Positions 1,369 to 11,799 of a DNA stretch of 11,799 nt are shown here, piece after piece. This DNA comes from a virus (Duplodnaviria; Heunggongvirae; Uroviricota; Caudoviricetes), in IMG/VR virus record IMGVR_UViG_2562617151_000001, positions 1 through 11,799 of that record, one strand, 5' to 3'. Numbering within the stretch: position 1 is the first letter of the stretch; the number at the start of each line of letters is the position of its first letter. The notes beneath the pieces were generated by a model. The model saw nothing but the letters and a program-made list of their open reading frames with translations. It had not been told where the DNA came from and did no database searches. Made by a program: the position numbers and the translations under genes.

Positions 1369-1444
1369 GCCGATATAGCTCAGTTGGTAGAGCAGCGCAT
1401 TCGTAATGCGAAGGTCGTAGGTTCGACTCCTATTATCGGCACCA
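1369..1444 (+). tRNA. thrW: tRNA-Thr, anticodon CGU
   Basis: 76-nt sequence GCCGATATAGCTCAGTTGGTAGAGCAGCGCATTCGTAATGCGAAGGTCGTAGGTTCGACTCCTATTATCGGCACCA read directly: 7-bp acceptor stem GCCGATA/TATCGGC, D-loop AGTTGGTAG, anticodon loop TTCGTAA (anticodon CGT), T-arm GGTTCGACTCC, encoded CCA. thrW is the known integration target of P22-family integrases. Confidence 0.95.
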
Positions 1445-1458
1445 TTTAAATCAATAAG

Positions 1459-2622
1459 TTACACATCATTAGTACCTTCCTTATTTTTTGACTGGGACAA
1501 ATTTGGGACCGATGGGTTCAGGATCGAGTCTATTTGCCGTGCGTGTTCGGTAAGGTGATTAGGTGCGAGGTGAGCATATCGACGAACCATTTCGATAGAC
1601 TCCCAGCCTCCCATTTCCTGTAACACTGACAACGGGACACCGGCTTGAACCAGCCAACTTGCCCAGGTGTGTCTCAAGTCATGAAATCTGAAATCATCAA
1701 TACCAGCTCGTCTCAGCGCCGCTTTCCAGGCTGTGTTTGCGTCATATCGCATCTTCCTGACTGTTGGCGCTTTCGTTCCGTCTGGTTTGGTACAGCTTTC
1801 CTTGTACACAAATACCCAATGGTGATGATTCCCGATTTGTTTTTTCAATACGCGACATGCAGTATCATTCAGCGCAACGCCAATTGCGCGGTTTGATTTA
1901 CTCTCTTCCGGGTTTATCCATGCCACCCGGCGCTGCATATCTATTTGTTGCCATTCAAGGTTGATGATGTTCGAGCGTCTTAAGCCTGTTGCCAGTGCAA
2001 ATTCAACAACAGACTTTAATGGCTCCGGACATTCATCAATCAGCCTTTGTGCTTCATGAGGCTCCAGCCAGCGGATCCGTTTATTCTTTGGTTGAGGCAC
2101 TTTAATAATTGGTGCCTTATCCAGCATTTTCCATTCACGCTCTGCGGCTCTTAGTAGGGCCTTTATAAATGAAAGATGCGTAGCCTTCGTTGCAACGGAC
2201 GCTGGTTTTGGCGTGTATTCTGGAACAGGTTTCCCTTTTTTTCTGCATGCTTCTGCCCTGAGTTTCCAGTTTTCCTCATGACGCCGGTTCGTCATTTTCT
2301 GCATTGCTGAATAAATTTTTGATTCAGTAATGTCTCTTAGTTGCATTCCTGCGAAATGTTGAAGCCAGAATCCGATCCGGCTTTTGTCATCGTCCAGTGA
2401 TTTTTTATGTGCTTTCTCTTCAAGCCACCTGACACACGCTTCCTCGAACGTTATATCAGGTATTTCACCAAGTTTGCTGACCCGCCATGCTTCAGCCTTT
2501 AGCTTGTCATGGAGTTCTGTCGCCTGCCTTTTGTCCTTTGTTCCAAGAGACTGTTTAAATCTTTTACCGTTCGGCAATGTGAAACTGGCGTACCATATTT
2601 CACCTCTGCGGAAGAGTGACAT
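1459..2622 (-). CDS. int: phage integrase, tyrosine recombinase, P22 Int-like, 387 aa
   Basis: ORF translation [47 protein letters not shown]...[39 protein letters not shown] matches my recollection of P22 integrase almost end to end, including the C-terminal R..H..R..Y catalytic region. It is adjacent to the tRNA target; stop TAA at 1461-1459. Confidence 0.95.
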
Positions 2623-3516: not shown

Positions 3517-4043
3517 TTGCGTAACTCCGATAACTCGTTAAAGCGTTCCATAAACATCCCGTAGGCATGGCCCGGTGCCAGTGGAATCACGTTGAACATC
3601 TCTGTTGCCGGGATACCTTCCAGTACAGGCCAGAAAGAGCCATCATCAAGCCCGAGATCGCGGCGTTCGGTTGCCAGCATGATGAGATCGGCATATTTCA
3701 CGGGCGTACTCATAACTGGGGGTAACCCGTATTTCTCACGGATTACGGCGTCTATTTTTTCTTCCATTTGTTTATAGTCAGGAAGAAGGCGTTTCAGTGG
3801 TGCGGGAATGTCCTGACAATACGCTTCTGTTGCATCATGCATTAACGCTTCGAAAGCAAACTCCTGCGGTACCAGCTGGCTGCAAAGCACCGCATGTTGG
3901 GCGACGCTGTAGAAGTGTGAAAGATGCCCTGCAAAGCGACAGATATTTGAGAGGGAAACTGCGATATCGTTAATCACGATGTCGTCTTTATTTATCCTGT
4001 CATAATAAAAATGCTTCCCGGAAAAAGTTTTAATAAATGACAT
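3507..4043 (-). CDS. HD-domain phosphohydrolase, YfdR-like (putative 5'-nucleotidase), 178 aa
   Basis: Start chosen at MSFIKTFSGKHFYY (ATG 4043-4041), preceded by GGAG about 8 nt upstream; the track ORF starts 9 codons earlier without an SD. HD signature visible: ...HLSHFYSVAQHAVL...EALMHDATEAY.... The length matches my recollection of K-12 YfdR. Confidence 0.8.
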   Translation of the reverse strand: MSFIKTFSGKHFYYDRINKDDIVINDIAVSLSNICRFAGHLSHFYSVAQHAVLCSQLVPQEFAFEALMHDATEAYCQDIPAPLKRLLPDYKQMEEKIDAVIREKYGLPPVMSTPVKYADLIMLATERRDLGLDDGSFWPVLEGIPATEMFNVIPLAPGHAYGMFMERFNELSELRKCA

Positions 4044-4170
4044 TTTGTTCTCCACGTATATGCGCTGCACCGCGCTGAATTCTGGTAAAAGGAAGCCCTC
4101 ACCATCCGGTGATTATTGAGTTAATTACGTTTCCATAAATGCCCCCGCAGGGGCATTTGCAGTAATGAAA

Positions 4171-4995
4171 TCAGGCGGTGAAAGTACCAATAAAGGTTTC
4201 GACTTTGCTGTCTTTGAATTTCTCAACAAGCAGATCACGAAATTCGTTAGCCATTTCTTCCTGCACTGCTTCCAGCTGAATAATGCGCAGAACCAGTACA
4301 GGGCGATCACCAGTGATAATGCTGAGTCGTAATTTAAATGGACGTTCTTTCAGGCCTTCAAACGGAACGCATTTAAATTCAAATGCCACTGGCATAATGT
4401 CTTTGGTCTTCGCTTCGACAGACTCCATCAGGGAGCGTTTGCCGCTGAAGTCATTGTCTTCAAAATCAGCAGTCTGGTTCGCTTCAATTGTGATTTTACG
4501 GACTGCCGCAGCCGCTTTTGTTGCCTGAATGGCGTCACCATTAGCATCAAAGCCCACAAGGTAGTCGGCCCAGTCTTCAATCCATTCTGCCAGTGACTTC
4601 TGGGAGTTACGCTCGCCGTTAACAGACAACAGAGCAGAGAACGGTGCTGTCTTTTTCAGTTTGAGAGTGGCGGTGTTATCTGCGTGACCTGGTTCATCAA
4701 TAGTACCCAGGTTAAGCACACTGACGGCACGCATATTATCAGCATCGATAAAGCAGCGGGTGCCTTCATCTGCAAGATCTTTAGAATAACGGGTAAAGTC
4801 ATCGATGCTGGCAGTGGAAAGCGCACCACGGAAACGGAAGCGATTTAAATTAAATTTTTCCAGATCATGAATGCGGAAATTCTCAGGCAATGCCACAGCA
4901 TCGGCACCAATCTTACTGATAATTTCATTAACACCCTGAGCAGAAATAAGGGCATGGATTTGATTAATTGCGGTTGCGTCTAAGTTCTGAGACAT
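4171..4995 (-). CDS. YfdQ-like protein (I recall this as the DUF2303 family), 274 aa
   Basis: [60 protein letters not shown]...; SD GAGGA about 6 nt upstream of ATG 4995-4993. The order yfdP-Q-R-S-T-like is the same as in CPS-53. Confidence 0.8.
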
Positions 4996-5060: not shown

Positions 5061-5423
5061 TTAACGACCTGCTGCGCGGAGTTTTCCGTCAGGTTCACCG
5101 GCAAGAGTCAGTAACTGTCCCTGGTCTTCCTGCAGAATAGTCAGGCGACCACCGCGATTGACATACATCGGCGTTTCGGTGGTGTCTTCTTCGGAAATTT
5201 TCCCGCGGTTAGTCGGGCGAACATATGAGAGTTTGTGTTTGATTTTCACACGGTTCTCATCAAATGGTTCGATTTCCAGGTTGAGTGAGACCTTACCTTT
5301 GGTTTTCGTGTTCATCACACCGGAAGCGACTTCACTGAGAACTGCGCCGATTTTGGTTTCAAATACGCCGCCGTCCAGCTCCCCGATAAATGCATGCACA
5401 TCAGTACTGCGTTCGCTAGCCAT
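5061..5423 (-). CDS. YfdP-like prophage protein, 120 aa; the track ORF is N-terminally over-extended
   Basis: Start placed at MASERSTDVHAFIGELDGGVFETKIGAVLSEV (ATG 5423-5421) because GAGGAG lies about 8 nt upstream. The 106 codons upstream in the track ORF are R/C/P-rich low-complexity translation of GC-rich non-coding DNA. Confidence 0.65.
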   Translation of the reverse strand: MASERSTDVHAFIGELDGGVFETKIGAVLSEVASGVMNTKTKGKVSLNLEIEPFDENRVKIKHKLSYVRPTNRGKISEEDTTETPMYVNRGGRLTILQEDQGQLLTLAGEPDGKLRAAGR

Positions 5424-5439
5424 TTTGCTGCTCCTCATC

Positions 5440-5760
5440 ATATCGACCCTGCAAGGCCGATTAGTTTCTCCACAAAACAGAGAAGAACACCTGCGGTGGC
5501 AGCCGCCCGGATGGATTGGGTTATGAGCCCGTCGTCCGGTGATGCTCTTCTCTGTTTTGTAAAAAGGACGGTACCAGCCGGAAGCAAGGGTACAAACTGG
5601 TACCGCCGGGACTACACACAGCATAAAGTTGTGGTGCCGGGTGCCTCCCGGTGCCTGGCGAAGGTTGCACACCAGACGGGTGGGTATCCACAGAAGGTCG
5701 ACTGTCAGCCTCAACCTTAACCCGCGTGCGCTGAGCCGCATTCACCACAACGCTAAGAAT
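5440..5760. other. GC-rich structured non-coding block; candidate structured RNA or relic of a foreign element
   Basis: No credible ORF in any frame (all translations are R/P/C-rich). Contains a perfect 15-bp inverted repeat (5472-5486 with 5546-5560), a 9-bp stem (5569-5577 with 5597-5605) and long-range 9-nt complementarity (5628-5636 with 5743-5751). Visibly more GC-rich than the flanking phage DNA. Confidence 0.3.
5472..5560. repeat. perfect 15-bp inverted repeat ACAAAACAGAGAAGA / TCTTCTCTGTTTTGT separated by a 59-nt GC-rich spacer
   Basis: Read directly: arm 5472-5486 is the exact reverse complement of 5546-5560; 2 further complementary bases lie inside after one mismatch. Confidence 0.85.
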
Positions 5761-6751: not shown

Positions 6752-7378
6752 TTAGAGTTCGTATTGAACTCCTTTGACTACACCAATGATAAGGCAATTA
6801 CCATTGATAGGGATGTTGGGATACCGAGGATTTAATGGCACTAAAAACTTTTGAGGGCCATCGATGACTAATTTTTTTACTGTAGCTTCGTTTGTTCCAT
6901 CAAGTCGAGCGATGACTATTTTTCCATGACGAGGTTCTGCATCTGGATCTACAATCACTGTTGCGCCTTCTGGTATTGTTGGGAGGCCATTAGGGTTAGT
7001 CATGGAGTCACCTTTAACCTCTAATGCAAATGAGTTATCACCAATCTTTAATGATGTATCTACCCACTTGTCCACTTCACTAAACACTTCTGCTGCCCTG
7101 CACTCAGTAAACTGCCCAGCCTGAACCCACGATATTACAGGAACTCTGCGCATGTTTGTGACGAGTTTGCCTTCAAACTCAGCACCATAAAGAATGTAAT
7201 CTATTGACGTATTGAAGAACTTCGCTAATTTCGAAAGTGCCTCCCCACCAGGGGTATTGATGTCTTTCTCCCAGTACCCCACAGCAACGTCGCTTACTCC
7301 ACAAAATTTACCCAATTCTTTCTGGGACGTTCCGGTAACTCTTCTCAGAGCTTTTATACGCTGACCAACCGTTTCCAT
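6752..7378 (-). CDS. cI: prophage repressor, CI / P22 C2-like (N-terminal HTH plus C-terminal S24 LexA-like autopeptidase domain), 208 aa
   Basis: ORF METVGQRIKALRRVTGTSQKELGKFCGVSDVAVGYWEKD... (HTH) ... ISWVQAGQF...LEVKGDSMTNP...ATVIVDPDAEPRHGKIVIARLDG.EATVKKL...GNCLIIGVV. Ser-Lys dyad context and overall architecture match the lambda CI / P22 C2 class. Divergent from cro. Confidence 0.92.
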   Translation of the reverse strand: METVGQRIKALRRVTGTSQKELGKFCGVSDVAVGYWEKDINTPGGEALSKLAKFFNTSIDYILYGAEFEGKLVTNMRRVPVISWVQAGQFTECRAAEVFSEVDKWVDTSLKIGDNSFALEVKGDSMTNPNGLPTIPEGATVIVDPDAEPRHGKIVIARLDGTNEATVKKLVIDGPQKFLVPLNPRYPNIPINGNCLIIGVVKGVQYEL

Positions 7379-7396: not shown

Positions 7397-7468
7397 ATTG
7401 CTAAGTAATCTTAGTTTTTATTGACCAAAGATAGATTTGTAATTAGCATCTAATAAAACTTAGTTTGG
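7397..7468 (+). promoter_or_regulatory. putative O_R / P_R region between cI and cro
   Basis: Near-palindrome CTAAGTAATCTTAG at 7401-7414; CTTAGTT at 7410 and 7459; 9-mer AACTTAGTT at 7457-7465 is identical to 6680-6688. Candidate P_R: -35 TTGACC 7421-7426, 17-nt spacer, -10 TAGCAT 7444-7449, then SD GGAGG 7467-7471 and cro ATG 7476. Confidence 0.45.
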
Positions 7469-7475
7469 AGGGCGT

Positions 7476-7676
7476 ATGACAACTGACGATATCGAAAGCT
7501 ACTTCGGCAGTATTGAGAAAGTTGCTGCTTTTTTCGGCATAACAACTGAAGCCGTTTATCAGTGGCGAAACCGTCCGGGCCAGTTAATTCCAAAAGGACG
7601 TGCAGCAGAAGCTGCATATAGAACTTGCGGACGGTTGCCATTTAAACCTGAGCTTTATGAAAAATCTAATGGATAA
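7476..7676 (+). CDS. cro: Cro-like transcriptional regulator (Cro / YdaS-type HTH), 66 aa
   Basis: [69 protein letters not shown]; a small HTH protein divergently transcribed from the repressor, with an SD in front. Confidence 0.85.
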   Translation: MTTDDIESYFGSIEKVAAFFGITTEAVYQWRNRPGQLIPKGRAAEAAYRTCGRLPFKPELYEKSNG

Positions 7677-8265
7677 ATCGATTAACAGAAACCACAGAAC
7701 GATGAGGCTAACCGTGGGTAAGCATCACTGGAAAGTAGAAAAACAGCCTGAGTGGTACGTGAAAGCTGTCAGAAAAACTATCGCAGCGTTGCCGGGTGGT
7801 TACGCTGAAGCAGCTGACTGGCTGGATGTAACAGAGAACGCATTATTTAACCGCCTTCGTGCCGATGGCGATCAGATTTTCCCGCTGGGATGGGCAATGA
7901 TTTTGCAACGTGCTGGTGGAACTCACTTCATTGCTGACGCTGTGGCGCAGTCTGCAAATGGCGTCTTTGTGTCTCTTCCTGATGTCGAGGATGTGGACAA
8001 CGCCGATATCAACCAACGCCTGCTGGAGGTCATTGAACAGATCGGCAGTTATTCAAAACAGATTCGTTCAGCAATTGAAGACGGTGTAGTGGAACCGCAT
8101 GAGAAGACAGCAATTAACGACGAGCTGTACCTCTCAATTTCGAAGCTGCAGGAGCATGCAGCACTGGTCTACAAAATTTTTTGCATTTCAGAAAGTAATG
8201 ACGCCCGCGAGTGTGCAGCTCCGGGCGCCGTGGCGTGTCGTGACTGTGGAGAAACTAACGCATGA
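7657..8265 (+). CDS. CII-like phage regulatory protein (YdaT / CP76-type); start uncertain
   Basis: ORF ...[73 protein letters not shown]...; lies directly after cro as in lambdoid layouts. Candidate starts are ATG 7657 and ATG 7669 (the latter 5 nt upstream of the cro stop); the track's 7600 start is a GTG only 1 nt after an SD-like AAAGGA and is unlikely. Confidence 0.65.
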
Positions 8266-8440
8266 ACAGTTTAACAACACACTACCGTCGCTCGCAACTG
8301 ATTGCGCTTCCTGTACCGGGTGGAAAAGCGAAGGTGGAGTATTGCTATGCAGTAAATGTACCAGGTGGCAGGGTAATTGTAACCCACAGCTTTGCAGAGT
8401 GGGCTGTGGGTGATTTTAACCGGCAAAAGGAGACAGTCCT

Positions 8441-8620
8441 TTGCGACAAGTTAACCGCTGGTTCAAAGATCACTACGGAGTACCCGTCAGAGTCATTCGT
8501 TGGGAGCCGGAAACACAACGGGTTATCTACCTCCGCGAAGGCTATGAGCATGAATGCTTCAGTCCGCTCGAACAGTTTCGTCGTAAATTCAGGGAAATAG
8601 AGGTCGGTCATGAGCACTAA
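8441..8620 (+). CDS. possible small protein (59 aa) with TTG start; alternative to the ATG-initiated 112-aa ORF 8262..8600
   Basis: AAGGAG sits 8 nt upstream of TTG 8441. The frame gives [59 protein letters not shown], a protein-like composition, ending at TAA 8618-8620 (overlapping the initiator start by 11 nt). It is absent from the ATG/GTG-based track. Confidence 0.35.
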
Positions 8621-9581
8621 ATTAACCGGCTATGTATGGGATGGTTGCGCTGCGTCAGGCATGAAATTATCCAGCGTGGCAATTATGGCCCGCCTGGCTG
8701 ATTTCAGTAATGACGAAGGTGTGTGCTGGCCATCAATTGAAACCATTGCCCGTCAGATTGGCGCGGGGATGAGTACCGTCAGAACGGCTATCGCACGGCT
8801 GGAAGCAGAAGGCTGGTTAACGCGTAAGGCGCGTCGCCAGGGTAACCGCAATGCGTCGAATGTTTATCAGCTTAACGTTGCGAAGCTTCAGGCAGCGGCA
8901 TTTTCTCAATTGTCAGATTCTGACCCGTCAAAATCTGACGCATCAAAATCTGACCCGTCAAAATCTGACGCATCAAAATCTGACCCGTCAAAATTTGATG
9001 CGTCGAAATCTGGCAAAAAAGCGGGTTTTCACCCGTCAGAATCTGGCGGGGATCCGTCAGTAAAATCAAAACATGATCCGTCAGATAAAAAAACTTCTCG
9101 TCCGGACGCTTCGCAACCGGACACGCAGACGGCTGAACAGGAGTTTTTAACTCGCCATCCTGATGCGGTTGTATTCAGCCCTAAAAAGCGCCAGTGGGGA
9201 ACGCAGGATGATTTGACCTGCGCACAGTGGCTCTGGAAAAAAATCATCGCCCTGTACGAGCAGGCCGCCGAATGTGACGGCGAGGTGGTTCGTCCCAAAG
9301 AACCGAACTGGACAGCCTGGGCAAACGAAATTCGCCTGATGTGTGTGCAGGATGGTCGTACTCACAAACAAATCTGCGAGATGTACAGCCGCGTCAGCCG
9401 CGATCCGTTCTGGTGCCGTAACGTGCTCAGCCCGTCGAAGCTGCGGGAAAAATGGGATGAGCTTTCCCTGCGCTTATCGCCGTCCGTCAGCACGTACACA
9501 GAAAAACGCGAAGACCCGTACTTCAAAGCCAGTTACGACAACGTGGACTACAGCCAGATCCCGGCAGGATTCAGGGGGTGA
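8610..9581 (+). CDS. phage replication initiation protein (lambda O-like role; N-terminal HTH, internal iteron-encoded linker), 323 aa
   Basis: N-terminus [70 protein letters not shown] is a typical helix-turn-helix replication-protein domain. The internal SDPSKSDASKSDPSKSDASK stretch is encoded by a 15-bp iteron array, the lambdoid ori-within-initiator arrangement. SD AGAGG precedes ATG 8610. Confidence 0.85.
   Translation: MSTKLTGYVWDGCAASGMKLSSVAIMARLADFSNDEGVCWPSIETIARQIGAGMSTVRTAIARLEAEGWLTRKARRQGNRNASNVYQLNVAKLQAAAFSQLSDSDPSKSDASKSDPSKSDASKSDPSKFDASKSGKKAGFHPSESGGDPSVKSKHDPSDKKTSRPDASQPDTQTAEQEFLTRHPDAVVFSPKKRQWGTQDDLTCAQWLWKKIIALYEQAAECDGEVVRPKEPNWTAWANEIRLMCVQDGRTHKQICEMYSRVSRDPFWCRNVLSPSKLREKWDELSLRLSPSVSTYTEKREDPYFKASYDNVDYSQIPAGFRG
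8919..9008. repeat. iteron array: six tandem 15-bp units alternating TCTGACCCGTCAAAA / TCTGACGCATCAAAA; probable prophage origin of replication
   Basis: Units at 8919, 8934, 8949, 8964, 8979 and 8994 (the last degenerate), with degenerate copies flanking (8911-8918, 9009-9023) and GATCCGTCAG repeated at 9051 and 9075, followed by an A-rich stretch at 9084-9095. Located inside the initiator CDS. Confidence 0.85.
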
Positions 9582-9583
9582 TC

Positions 9584-10072
9584 ATGAGTCTTTTGAATGA
9601 AGTTCAGAAATACATTGAAGCCCATCCGGGGTGTACTTCCGGAGACATTGCGGATGCTTTTGCAGGTTACTCACGGCAGCGCGTTCTGCAGTCAGCAAGC
9701 AAGTTACGTCAGAGTGGGCGTGTGGCTCACCGTTGTGAAGGGGATACACGCAGACATTTCCCGCGCCTGACTGAGAGAGCGCAGGAGGCGGAACCGCAAC
9801 CAGTTCGTGAAACCAGACCTGTGCGCAATTTCTATGTCGGCACTAACGACCCGCGGGAGATTTTGTGCCTGACCCGCCAGGCTGAAGAACTGGAGTCCAG
9901 GGGCTTATACCGTCGTGCTGCAACGGTGTGGATGGCGGCATTCCGTGAAAGCCACTCCCAGCCAGAACGAAACAATTTTCTGGCGCGTCGTGAGCAGTGT
10001 TTACGGAAAAGCAGCAAGCGCGCTGTATCGAGTGATGAGTGGTATCTGTCAGGGAATTACGTGGGGGCGTAA
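9584..10072 (+). CDS. PerC-family (Pch-like) regulator domain protein with an N-terminal winged-helix-like region, 162 aa
   Basis: C-terminal LTRQAEELESRGLYRRAATVWMAAFRESHSQPERNNFLARREQCLRK matches the PerC/Pch signature (LE..GLWRRAA..W ... RR..C). ATG 9584 is preceded by GGGGG; the GTG 9578 in the track is less likely. The stop overlaps the next start as TAATG. Confidence 0.6.
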   Translation: MSLLNEVQKYIEAHPGCTSGDIADAFAGYSRQRVLQSASKLRQSGRVAHRCEGDTRRHFPRLTERAQEAEPQPVRETRPVRNFYVGTNDPREILCLTRQAEELESRGLYRRAATVWMAAFRESHSQPERNNFLARREQCLRKSSKRAVSSDEWYLSGNYVGA

Positions 10073-10803: not shown

Positions 10804-11247
10804 ATGAATAATCTGATGGTCATTGATGGTATTGAAGTTCGTCGTGATGCTTATGGGCGTTACAGCCTGAACGATCTGCATCGCGCAGCAGTAGCATCTG
10901 GTGCAAATGCCAGAACCAAGGAGCCGGGAAAGTTTCTTTCCAGCCAACAAACTGTTGAGCTTGTTCATGAATTGACCAACACCCAGAATTTGGGTGTTGA
11001 CCCGGTGAGTGTGATTCATGGGGGAAATGAACGGGGAACTTATGTCTGCAAGGAACTGGTGTATGCCTATGCAATGTGGATCAGCCCGTCATTCCATCTG
11101 AAGGTGATCCGTACTTTCGACATGGTAACCAGCGCACCGGAAAAATTATCCGGACAGGCTGCTGACAAGATGCAGGCTGGTGTGATTCTGCTGGACTTTA
11201 TGCGTCGGGAGTTACCCGAACCGCGACAAGCCCTATATCCGGAGTAA
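10804..11247 (+). CDS. KilA-N domain protein, 147 aa
   Basis: Start at MNNLMVIDGIEVRRDAYGRYSLNDLHRAA (ATG 10804, SD AAGAGGAG 9 nt upstream); the GTG 10771 in the track is unlikely. ...GTYVCKELVYAYAMWISPSFHLKVIRTF fits the conserved KilA-N C-terminal block. Confidence 0.7.
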   Translation: MNNLMVIDGIEVRRDAYGRYSLNDLHRAAVASGANARTKEPGKFLSSQQTVELVHELTNTQNLGVDPVSVIHGGNERGTYVCKELVYAYAMWISPSFHLKVIRTFDMVTSAPEKLSGQAADKMQAGVILLDFMRRELPEPRQALYPE

Positions 11248-11250
11248 TCC

Positions 11251-11799
11251 ATGCATCGTATAGACACGAAAACCGCGCAGAAGGATAAGTTCGGCGCGGG
11301 TAAGAACGGTTTTACCCGTGGTAACCCCCAGACAGGCACGCCTGCCACCGATCTGGATGATGACTACTTTGACATGTTGCAGGAGGAGCTTTGCAGCGTG
11401 GTGGAGGCATCCGGTGCCAGCCTAGAGAAGGGGCGGCACGACCAGTTGCTTACCGCGCTTCGTGCGCTGCTGTTAAGCCGCAAGAATCCGTTTGGCGATA
11501 TCAAATCGGACGGCACGGTGAAAACGGCTCTCGAAAACCTTGGTTTGGGAGAAGCGGCGAAAAGGGATGTGGGCACAGGAGATAATCAGATACCGGATAT
11601 GGGAGCATTCGCTTCTGGTTCGGGATGGTTCAGGCTACCAGGTGGATATATTGTTCAGTTTGGCACTTTTTCAGGAAACACGACCCGCTTTATCAGTGGA
11701 CACTTCCCTATACCATTCCCTAATCAGCCGATGGTTTCAGTCAGTGTTATGTCTGATGCCGTTCAGTCAGACCCGTCGAATCCTCGCCCCGCAGGTTTT
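11251..11799 (+). CDS. tail-fibre-like protein, N-terminal 183 codons; 3' end beyond the window
   Basis: ATG 11251 with GGAG 7 nt upstream; open to the window end (absent from the track because there is no stop). Translation [74 protein letters not shown]...[21 protein letters not shown] resembles phage tail-fibre proteins by recollection; the family assignment is tentative. Confidence 0.5.

Follow-up and report, generated by a model that had tools for sequence, protein, structure and literature searches.

yfdN, a conserved early gene of lambdoid prophages with a predicted two-domain, PerC-like product

Gene content of the prophage region

The window, which is the whole stretch of 11,799 nucleotides analysed here, carries in order proA, tRNA-Thr(CGT), a tyrosine integrase gene, genes similar to yfdT, yfdS, yfdR, and yfdQ, and a cI-like repressor gene on the minus strand. 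These are followed by a P22-type cro, a CII-like gene, an unassigned gene, a gene for an O-like replication initiator, yfdN, a gene for a protein that consists of a LexA DNA-binding domain only, rusA, and a KilA-N gene (Table 1). The thrW position by proA is the integration site of the serotype-converting phages of Shigella. The KilA-N gene, truncated near position 11235 (region 10804–11799), is fused there to what is left of a ymfQ-like baseplate gene, its 3' end, and the start of a tail-fibre gene is at 11252. Through this internal deletion Q, the lysis genes, and the head genes have been lost, and the prophage is therefore defective. The deletion junction was not found in one piece among the complete Escherichia coli genomes, and an exact search of genome contigs for it gave no match; over the whole window the best matches are E. 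coli genomes with 98.6% identity. There is an analogous scar, yfdM'/yfdL', in prophage CPS-53 of strain K-12, which is likewise defective.

Table 1. Features of the window and of the yfdN product, with the evidence for each.
Feature	Position	Strand	Evidence or remark
tRNA-Thr(CGT), thrW position adjoining proA	1369–1444		
Tyrosine integrase, abutting tRNA-Thr(CGT)	1459–2622	-	
cI-like repressor, HTH and S24 domains	6752–7378	-	Pfam
pR-like promoter upstream of cro (candidate)	7421–7449	+	Consensus scan, pattern match only
O-like replication initiator	8610–9581	+	Pfam HTH_36; phrog_391, E 1.9e-135
Tandem 15-bp unit TCTGACCCGTCAAAA, 6.3 copies (or 30-bp unit, 3.1 copies)	8919–9012		Inside the O-like gene
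Shine-Dalgarno-like AGGGGG	9573–9578	+	Sequence reading; 5 nt before ATG 9584, within the end of the upstream gene
yfdN-type gene, 162 aa and stop codon	9584–10072	+	DNA identity to SfIV gp42; protein identity to K-12 YfdN; full-length phrog_1324 match
Predicted N-terminal winged helix-turn-helix, aa 1–60	9584–9763	+	AlphaFold2 pLDDT 84–89; basic, pI 9.3
Variable acidic linker, predicted disordered, aa 61–89	9764–9850	+	Model, A1 alignment, charge
Predicted PerC-like three-helix TPR-like domain, aa 90–143	9851–10012	+	pLDDT >90; basic, pI about 10
C-terminal tail, aa 144–162, motif W-[YF]-L-x-G-x-[YF]-x-G	10013–10069	+	A1 conservation; low model confidence
LexA-DNA-binding-domain-only protein, 108 aa	10072–10398	+	Pfam LexA_DNA_bind, E 2.9e-19

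In the window yfdN is an intact open reading frame, running from the ATG at 9584 to the TAA at 10070–10072. Its DNA is 100% identical to that of gp42 of Shigella phage SfIV, and the protein is 94% identical to YfdN of E. coli K-12 (b2357, in the cryptic prophage CPS-53/KpLE1). The prophage location given to it in the first-pass annotation is correct. The nin-region placement that had been proposed for the gene holds in rough terms, as it lies between the O-like gene and the genes for the LexA-like, RusA, and KilA-N proteins. The product matches phrog_1324 over its full length (aa 1–161, E 2.7e-76), a match that takes in both domains and puts it in the YfdN orthologous group, for which the RefSeq name is yfdN. 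K-12 YfdN and SfIV gp42 have the same length, both domains, and the same neighbours as the gene in the window (upstream yfdO or an O-like gene, downstream a methyltransferase or a LexA-like gene). There is no substantive difference from either, the window copy being in another, thrW-integrated and independently deleted, prophage.

Some annotations start the gene at GTG 9578, which gives a protein of 164 aa. Since this codon overlaps the Shine-Dalgarno-like AGGGGG and the diverged YfdN homologues all start MSL or MSI, ATG 9584 is likely to be the start of yfdN. The stop codon of the O-like gene (9579–9581) is 2 nt ahead of this start, so that the O-like gene is the first of two translationally coupled genes; in diverged lineages the stop of the replication gene and the start of the yfdN gene overlap, as ATGA. 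At its other end, the stop codon of yfdN and the start of the LexA-like gene overlap by one base (TAATG).

Within the O-like gene, the tandem array at 8919–9012 encodes an SDPSK/SDASK peptide repeat. The array is probably a set of origin iterons that, like those of lambda O, are contained within the gene for the initiator.

Prior annotation and distribution of yfdN

The RefSeq label on SfIV gp42 and on the copies of yfdN is already "PerC family transcriptional regulator", the protein database holds clusters under this name with thousands of members, and a 2018 paper names yfdN "the K12 unique PerC homologue" (PMC5931665). Given that RefSeq, phage annotation, and the literature already name yfdN or a PerC homologue, the present finding is a rediscovery of a catalogued prophage gene. 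It is an ordinary phage early gene and no new virulence regulator.

By megablast, 2668 of the 5426 complete E. coli genomes, K-12 among them, carry a yfdN-like gene. The gene is also carried by mEp460 and by Stx2c-converting phages, the orthologue in the Stx2c-converting phages of O157 being 96.7% identical. No experiment on YfdN was found in the literature search, which did not reach some of the earlier PerC and Pch work, and the mentions that were found are at the level of screens. An over-expression screen lists yfdN among the clones with altered glycogen accumulation (PMC2853380), a region containing yfdN2 appears in a filamentation screen of strain UTI89 (PMC6206680), and yfdN is in a predicted interaction network (bioRxiv 10.1101/2025.05.07.652715).

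Domain architecture of the YfdN protein

An AlphaFold2 model was built from alignment A1, which holds 37 diverse full-length relatives. The extra N-terminal domain that had been noted in the first-pass annotation is present, and in the model it is a winged helix-turn-helix. It has three helices and a beta-hairpin wing and superposes at about 2 Å on the DNA-binding domains of MarR, MepR, MecI, ArsR, and FabT. No winged helix-turn-helix family in Pfam is matched by the window protein at E ≤10, and the profile matches of this type that do exist are weak, with PHROG MarR at 5.7e-5 and BilQ at 2.5e-4, the latter far under the BilQ cut-off. A search of PDB sequences with the window protein gave nothing meaningful, the best E being about 1.

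The linker has neither helix nor strand in the model across aa 61–89, has pLDDT below 50 at aa 63–79, and varies in both length and sequence in alignment A1. It is acidic, whereas both of the folded domains are basic. In the C-terminal domain L103, R111, and A112 are invariant across the family, and conservation reaches at least 90% at A100, A113, R136, and C139; the model of this domain resembles the helical units of TPR, SNAP, and MIT proteins, which are typically protein-binding modules. The tail that follows is marked by G157 and G161, each at least 90% conserved in alignment A1, and its motif is specific to the YfdN subfamily, the PerC and Pch proteins being without it.

Homology to PerC and the Pch proteins

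It had been claimed from the first reading that the C-terminal half of the protein carries a PerC-family signature, and this signature, LESRGLYRRAATVWMAAF...ARREQC, is located at aa 103–139. A profile search supports the family assignment: Pfam PerC (PF06069) matches aa 98–152 with E 7.4e-10 and 39.4 bits, where the gathering cut-off is 22.6, and the match spans profile positions 5–59 of 90. When the family of YfdN C-terminal domains is aligned by hhalign to PerC, PchA, PchE, and four other short PerC proteins, the probability is 99.3% (E 1e-20). In pairwise comparisons with the window protein, identity is 32% over 56 aa for PerC (E 2e-7), 40% over 50 aa for PchA (E 2e-8), and 40% over 52 aa for PchE (E 2e-10). 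Residues 100–139 align without gaps to PerC 8–47, to PchA 7–46, and to PchE, and the shared core motif, LE-x-[KR]G-x-Y-RRAA-x2-W ... R-x2-C, is present. The perC sequence was taken from the annotation of pMAR2; a tblastn search of plasmids with the C-terminal domain did not reach the perC of the EAF plasmid.

The likeness extends over part of the family profile. PchA, PchB, and PchC of EHEC and PerC of EPEC have, like YfdN, the three-helix core A-x2-LE-x-[KR]-G-[LF]-Y-RRAA-x2-W ... R-x2-C, with 32–40% identity over 50–56 aa, and like YfdN they are all on mobile elements. However, PerC (89 aa), PchE (90 aa), and PchA (104 aa) are single-domain proteins with a conserved C-terminal half, whereas YfdN is longer than the approximately 90–105 aa of the family and adds the winged helix, the linker, and a tail of its own. 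The C-terminal half of PerC and Pch (profile positions 60–90) is absent from YfdN, where there is instead an unrelated 19-aa tail. The locations also differ, with pchA alone in the late region of Sp4, perC in the perABC operon, and yfdN in an early operon behind a replication gene. Judged by its sequence, YfdN is a divergent, two-domain, half-length member of the PerC family.

The closest characterised homologue of YfdN is PchE, a group 3 Pch protein from Sp7 of strain Sakai. Like yfdN, pchE is directly downstream of replication genes, but it differs in encoding 90 aa without a winged helix, in keeping the C-terminal half of PerC, and in being on a P4-like rather than a lambdoid element. When over-expressed, PchE represses csgD and curli and raises flagellar expression, and it is no activator of ler (PMC6265319, PMC7369912). 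The pchE gene (7773–8045 of locus L012) follows genes for a primase and SSB in this P4-like element. A further short PerC gene (4001–4246 of locus L016) is beside a LysR regulator, about 0.8 kb from an H-NS paralogue.

Relationship to the ANR proteins

The NCBIfam ANR model, NF033650, matches the window protein in register at aa 96–142 with E 8.5e-5, although at 22.3 bits this is under the cut-off of 32. The same model is matched by 26 of the 37 YfdN-family members at E ≤0.01, the best having an E of 4e-9, and the published ANR signature, A-E-A-W-A, lines up with A100, E104, A112, W116, and A119 of the window sequence (PMC4983702). The NF033650 matches hint at a kinship between PerC and ANR, of which no discussion was found in the ANR literature searched. 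ANR proteins such as Aar and Rnr have, as does YfdN, a three-helix TPR-like fold with the same conserved A/E/A/W/A spacing, but they are single-domain proteins of 4–10 kDa, whereas YfdN has two domains. ANR proteins bind H-NS (PMC10148876), which is the protein counteracted by Pch (PMC4764244).

These matches and the aligned signature, together with the three-helix form in both families and the location of rnr, which is likewise a prophage early-region gene, could be taken to mean that YfdN is itself an ANR-like anti-regulator. Its C-terminal module would then bind AraC-family activators and/or H-NS directly and, like Aar and Rnr, keep them from binding DNA, with the winged helix as an accessory. 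We consider this unlikely. The score of the window protein is below the cut-off, hhalign to the Rnr clade gives a probability of 5%, which is not significant and comes from a shallow ANR alignment of 13 close relatives, and the small, single-domain form of the ANR proteins is not that of YfdN. The motif in common is, moreover, a generic TPR-like pattern, and Rnr itself gives weak TPR matches. The rnr gene of strain E2348/69 (5410–5643 of locus L011) belongs to the early genes of a Mu-like prophage.

Conservation of the gene and of its position

HMMER, run exhaustively against 1.84 billion representatives, found only 104 clusters at E ≤0.001, of which about twenty are full-length two-domain relatives with 25–46% identity. 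Both domains are kept in the full-length relatives down to about 25–38% identity. Four of the relatives, with 27–38% identity, are on long contigs, and these have the same slot as yfdN, directly after a replication gene that is either of the HTH_36/Phg_2220_C type or a homologue of lambda P, with the ATGA overlap. Downstream of them are Dam, a LexA DNA-binding-domain protein, and RusA, and then, on contigs long enough to show them, DUF968 and a Q-type antiterminator. For a fifth relative, on two short contigs, only the overlapping neighbours are visible. The slot directly behind the replication gene of the early-right operon is common to the window, SfIV, K-12, and the diverged relatives.

Between the yfdN of the window and the K-12 copy, dN/dS is 0.30. 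It might be supposed that yfdN is a decaying passenger, functionless in this defective prophage, as the late genes have been lost by the internal deletion and CPS-53 of K-12 is degraded in a similar way. This is very unlikely, given that the reading frame is intact and identical to the copy in SfIV, a viable phage, that dN/dS is at this level, and that domains and synteny are kept down to 27–38% identity. On the evidence of these comparisons, yfdN is a maintained phage gene and no debris.

The protein P0185 (4001–4273 of locus L018, 90 aa) combines the PerC-like core with a tail of the YfdN type and has no winged helix. Its gene occupies the identical slot after an HTH_36 replication gene, which indicates that at least one lineage can do without the N-terminal domain.

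The constancy of the position could suggest that YfdN assists the replication module, for example at the origin or on the replisome, and is no transcription regulator. The gene is always directly after, and translationally coupled to, a replication gene, and this is so for two unrelated modules, O-like and lambda P; pchE too is after a primase gene and that of SSB in Sp7, and the probable origin iterons are about 600 bp upstream of yfdN. The same pairing can be turned around, since one protein family found with different replication systems argues against a specific replisome partner. In lambda, the equivalent position is occupied by the nin and ren genes, which are not replication genes. The sole characterised homologues of YfdN are transcription modulators, and a role in replication is on balance improbable.

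A Ren-like exclusion protein was also considered as a candidate, prompted by the slot after P and by a weak match to phrog_142. The E value for the window protein is 2.4e-3, and the candidate was dropped because 2 of the 37 relatives match at E ≤0.001.

The neighbouring LexA-like protein has no S24 self-cleavage domain. Its gene follows the yfdN-like gene, either directly or after Dam, in all four long contigs, and the protein is sometimes longer (up to 162 aa). A non-cleavable look-alike of LexA could sit on SOS boxes during induction. In a PADLOC scan of six proteins for defence systems there was no match for yfdN, and one weak match to CARF3 (E 3.6e-4), which was to this LexA-like neighbour.

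Predicted expression of yfdN

The consensus scan found no promoter-like site on the plus strand at 7450–9584, the region directly before yfdN included, and no plus-strand terminator-like site between the pR-like site and yfdN. The pR-like site before cro is thus likely to be the source of yfdN transcription. Taken with the overlaps of stop and start codons, the promoter scan would place yfdN in an early-right operon that is under the control of the repressor. Since no promoter-like site other than the pR-like one lies close to the operon's head and there is none directly upstream of the gene, yfdN is predicted to be silent in the repressed lysogen. It is best read as a delayed-early gene of the pR operon that is made on induction, a timing that we infer from this arrangement. 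In strain CFT073 under nitric oxide stress, yfdN is up 12.6-fold alongside neighbouring prophage genes (PMC5320621), which fits with its placement in the early-right operon.

The question of LEE and ler

In the first-pass annotation it was suggested that the protein could be a regulator that connects the prophage to host virulence or other genes, after the Pch proteins that activate the LEE by way of ler. The part of this that concerns LEE and ler is not supported, as the distribution of yfdN is independent of the LEE, the C-terminal half of PerC is absent, and the gene is predicted to be silent in the lysogen. ler is present in 697 of the 5426 complete E. coli genomes, as against 2668 of the same set with a yfdN-like gene, so that at least about 1970 carriers of yfdN are without the LEE, and a dedicated role of YfdN at LEE or ler is therefore unlikely. 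Indeed, K-12 has yfdN and no LEE, and the K-12 strain W3110 presumably carries yfdN as well. In W3110 the LEE1 promoter is low unless pch is supplied (PMC4764244). PchA activates LEE1 solely through the relief of silencing by H-NS, StpA, and Hha, and it binds AT-rich sites genome-wide (PMC4764244). Among the Pch proteins, only those of group 1 (PchA, PchB, and PchC) activate ler, while PchD and PchE do so barely or not at all (PMC5931665).

That YfdN is nonetheless a Pch-like activator of ler and the LEE, and by this route a virulence cross-talk regulator, has in its favour the PerC/Pch core motif, the presence of the closely similar orthologue in the O157 Stx2c-converting phages, and the precaution taken by one laboratory of deleting yfdN from a K-12 ler::lacZ reporter strain (PMC5931665). 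Against the numbers of genomes, the K-12 case, the low LEE1 of W3110 without pch, the restriction of ler activation to group 1, and the missing profile positions, and with yfdN in a repressed early operon where pchA is by itself in a late region, this is highly improbable. A putative regulatory effect of YfdN on other host genes, or on phage genes, is possible.

Proposed role and significance

yfdN would be a conserved delayed-early gene of lambdoid phages of the SfIV and CPS-53 type, with a two-domain product, transcribed from pR together with the replication genes. Inactivation of the cI-like S24 repressor, for example on SOS induction, would accordingly lead to YfdN production, with none expected in the quiet lysogen. 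The basic winged helix would put the protein on DNA, and the PerC-like module may then alter a complex of nucleoprotein or transcription factors, the most plausible means being relief of silencing of the H-NS/StpA/Hha type, as has been reported for Pch (PMC4764244). In lytic development the targets would be the genes of the phage, with those of the host affected incidentally. It is quite possible, if still somewhat short of probable, that YfdN in this way associates with DNA and modulates nucleoid or transcription proteins, being expressed on induction and working in the manner of Pch against H-NS.

A wider proposal, which is speculative and rather doubtful, is that the PerC/Pch superfamily, and perhaps ANR too, goes back to a phage original of the YfdN type. 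On induction, temperate phages would produce this conserved factor from the early operon, so loosening the H-NS-type silencing of their own AT-rich DNA, and the virulence regulators PerC and Pch would be shortened and relocated derivatives of the phage function.

The value of the finding as a discovery is small, as RefSeq and the literature (PMC5931665) already have the gene, assign it to its family, and treat it as the PerC homologue of K-12. What remains of value is that about half of E. coli genomes carry this uncharacterised y-gene, that its two-domain form and its fixed slot behind the replication gene have been kept over deep divergence, and that there may be a link between the PerC-like and ANR-like small regulators, both of which are tied to H-NS.
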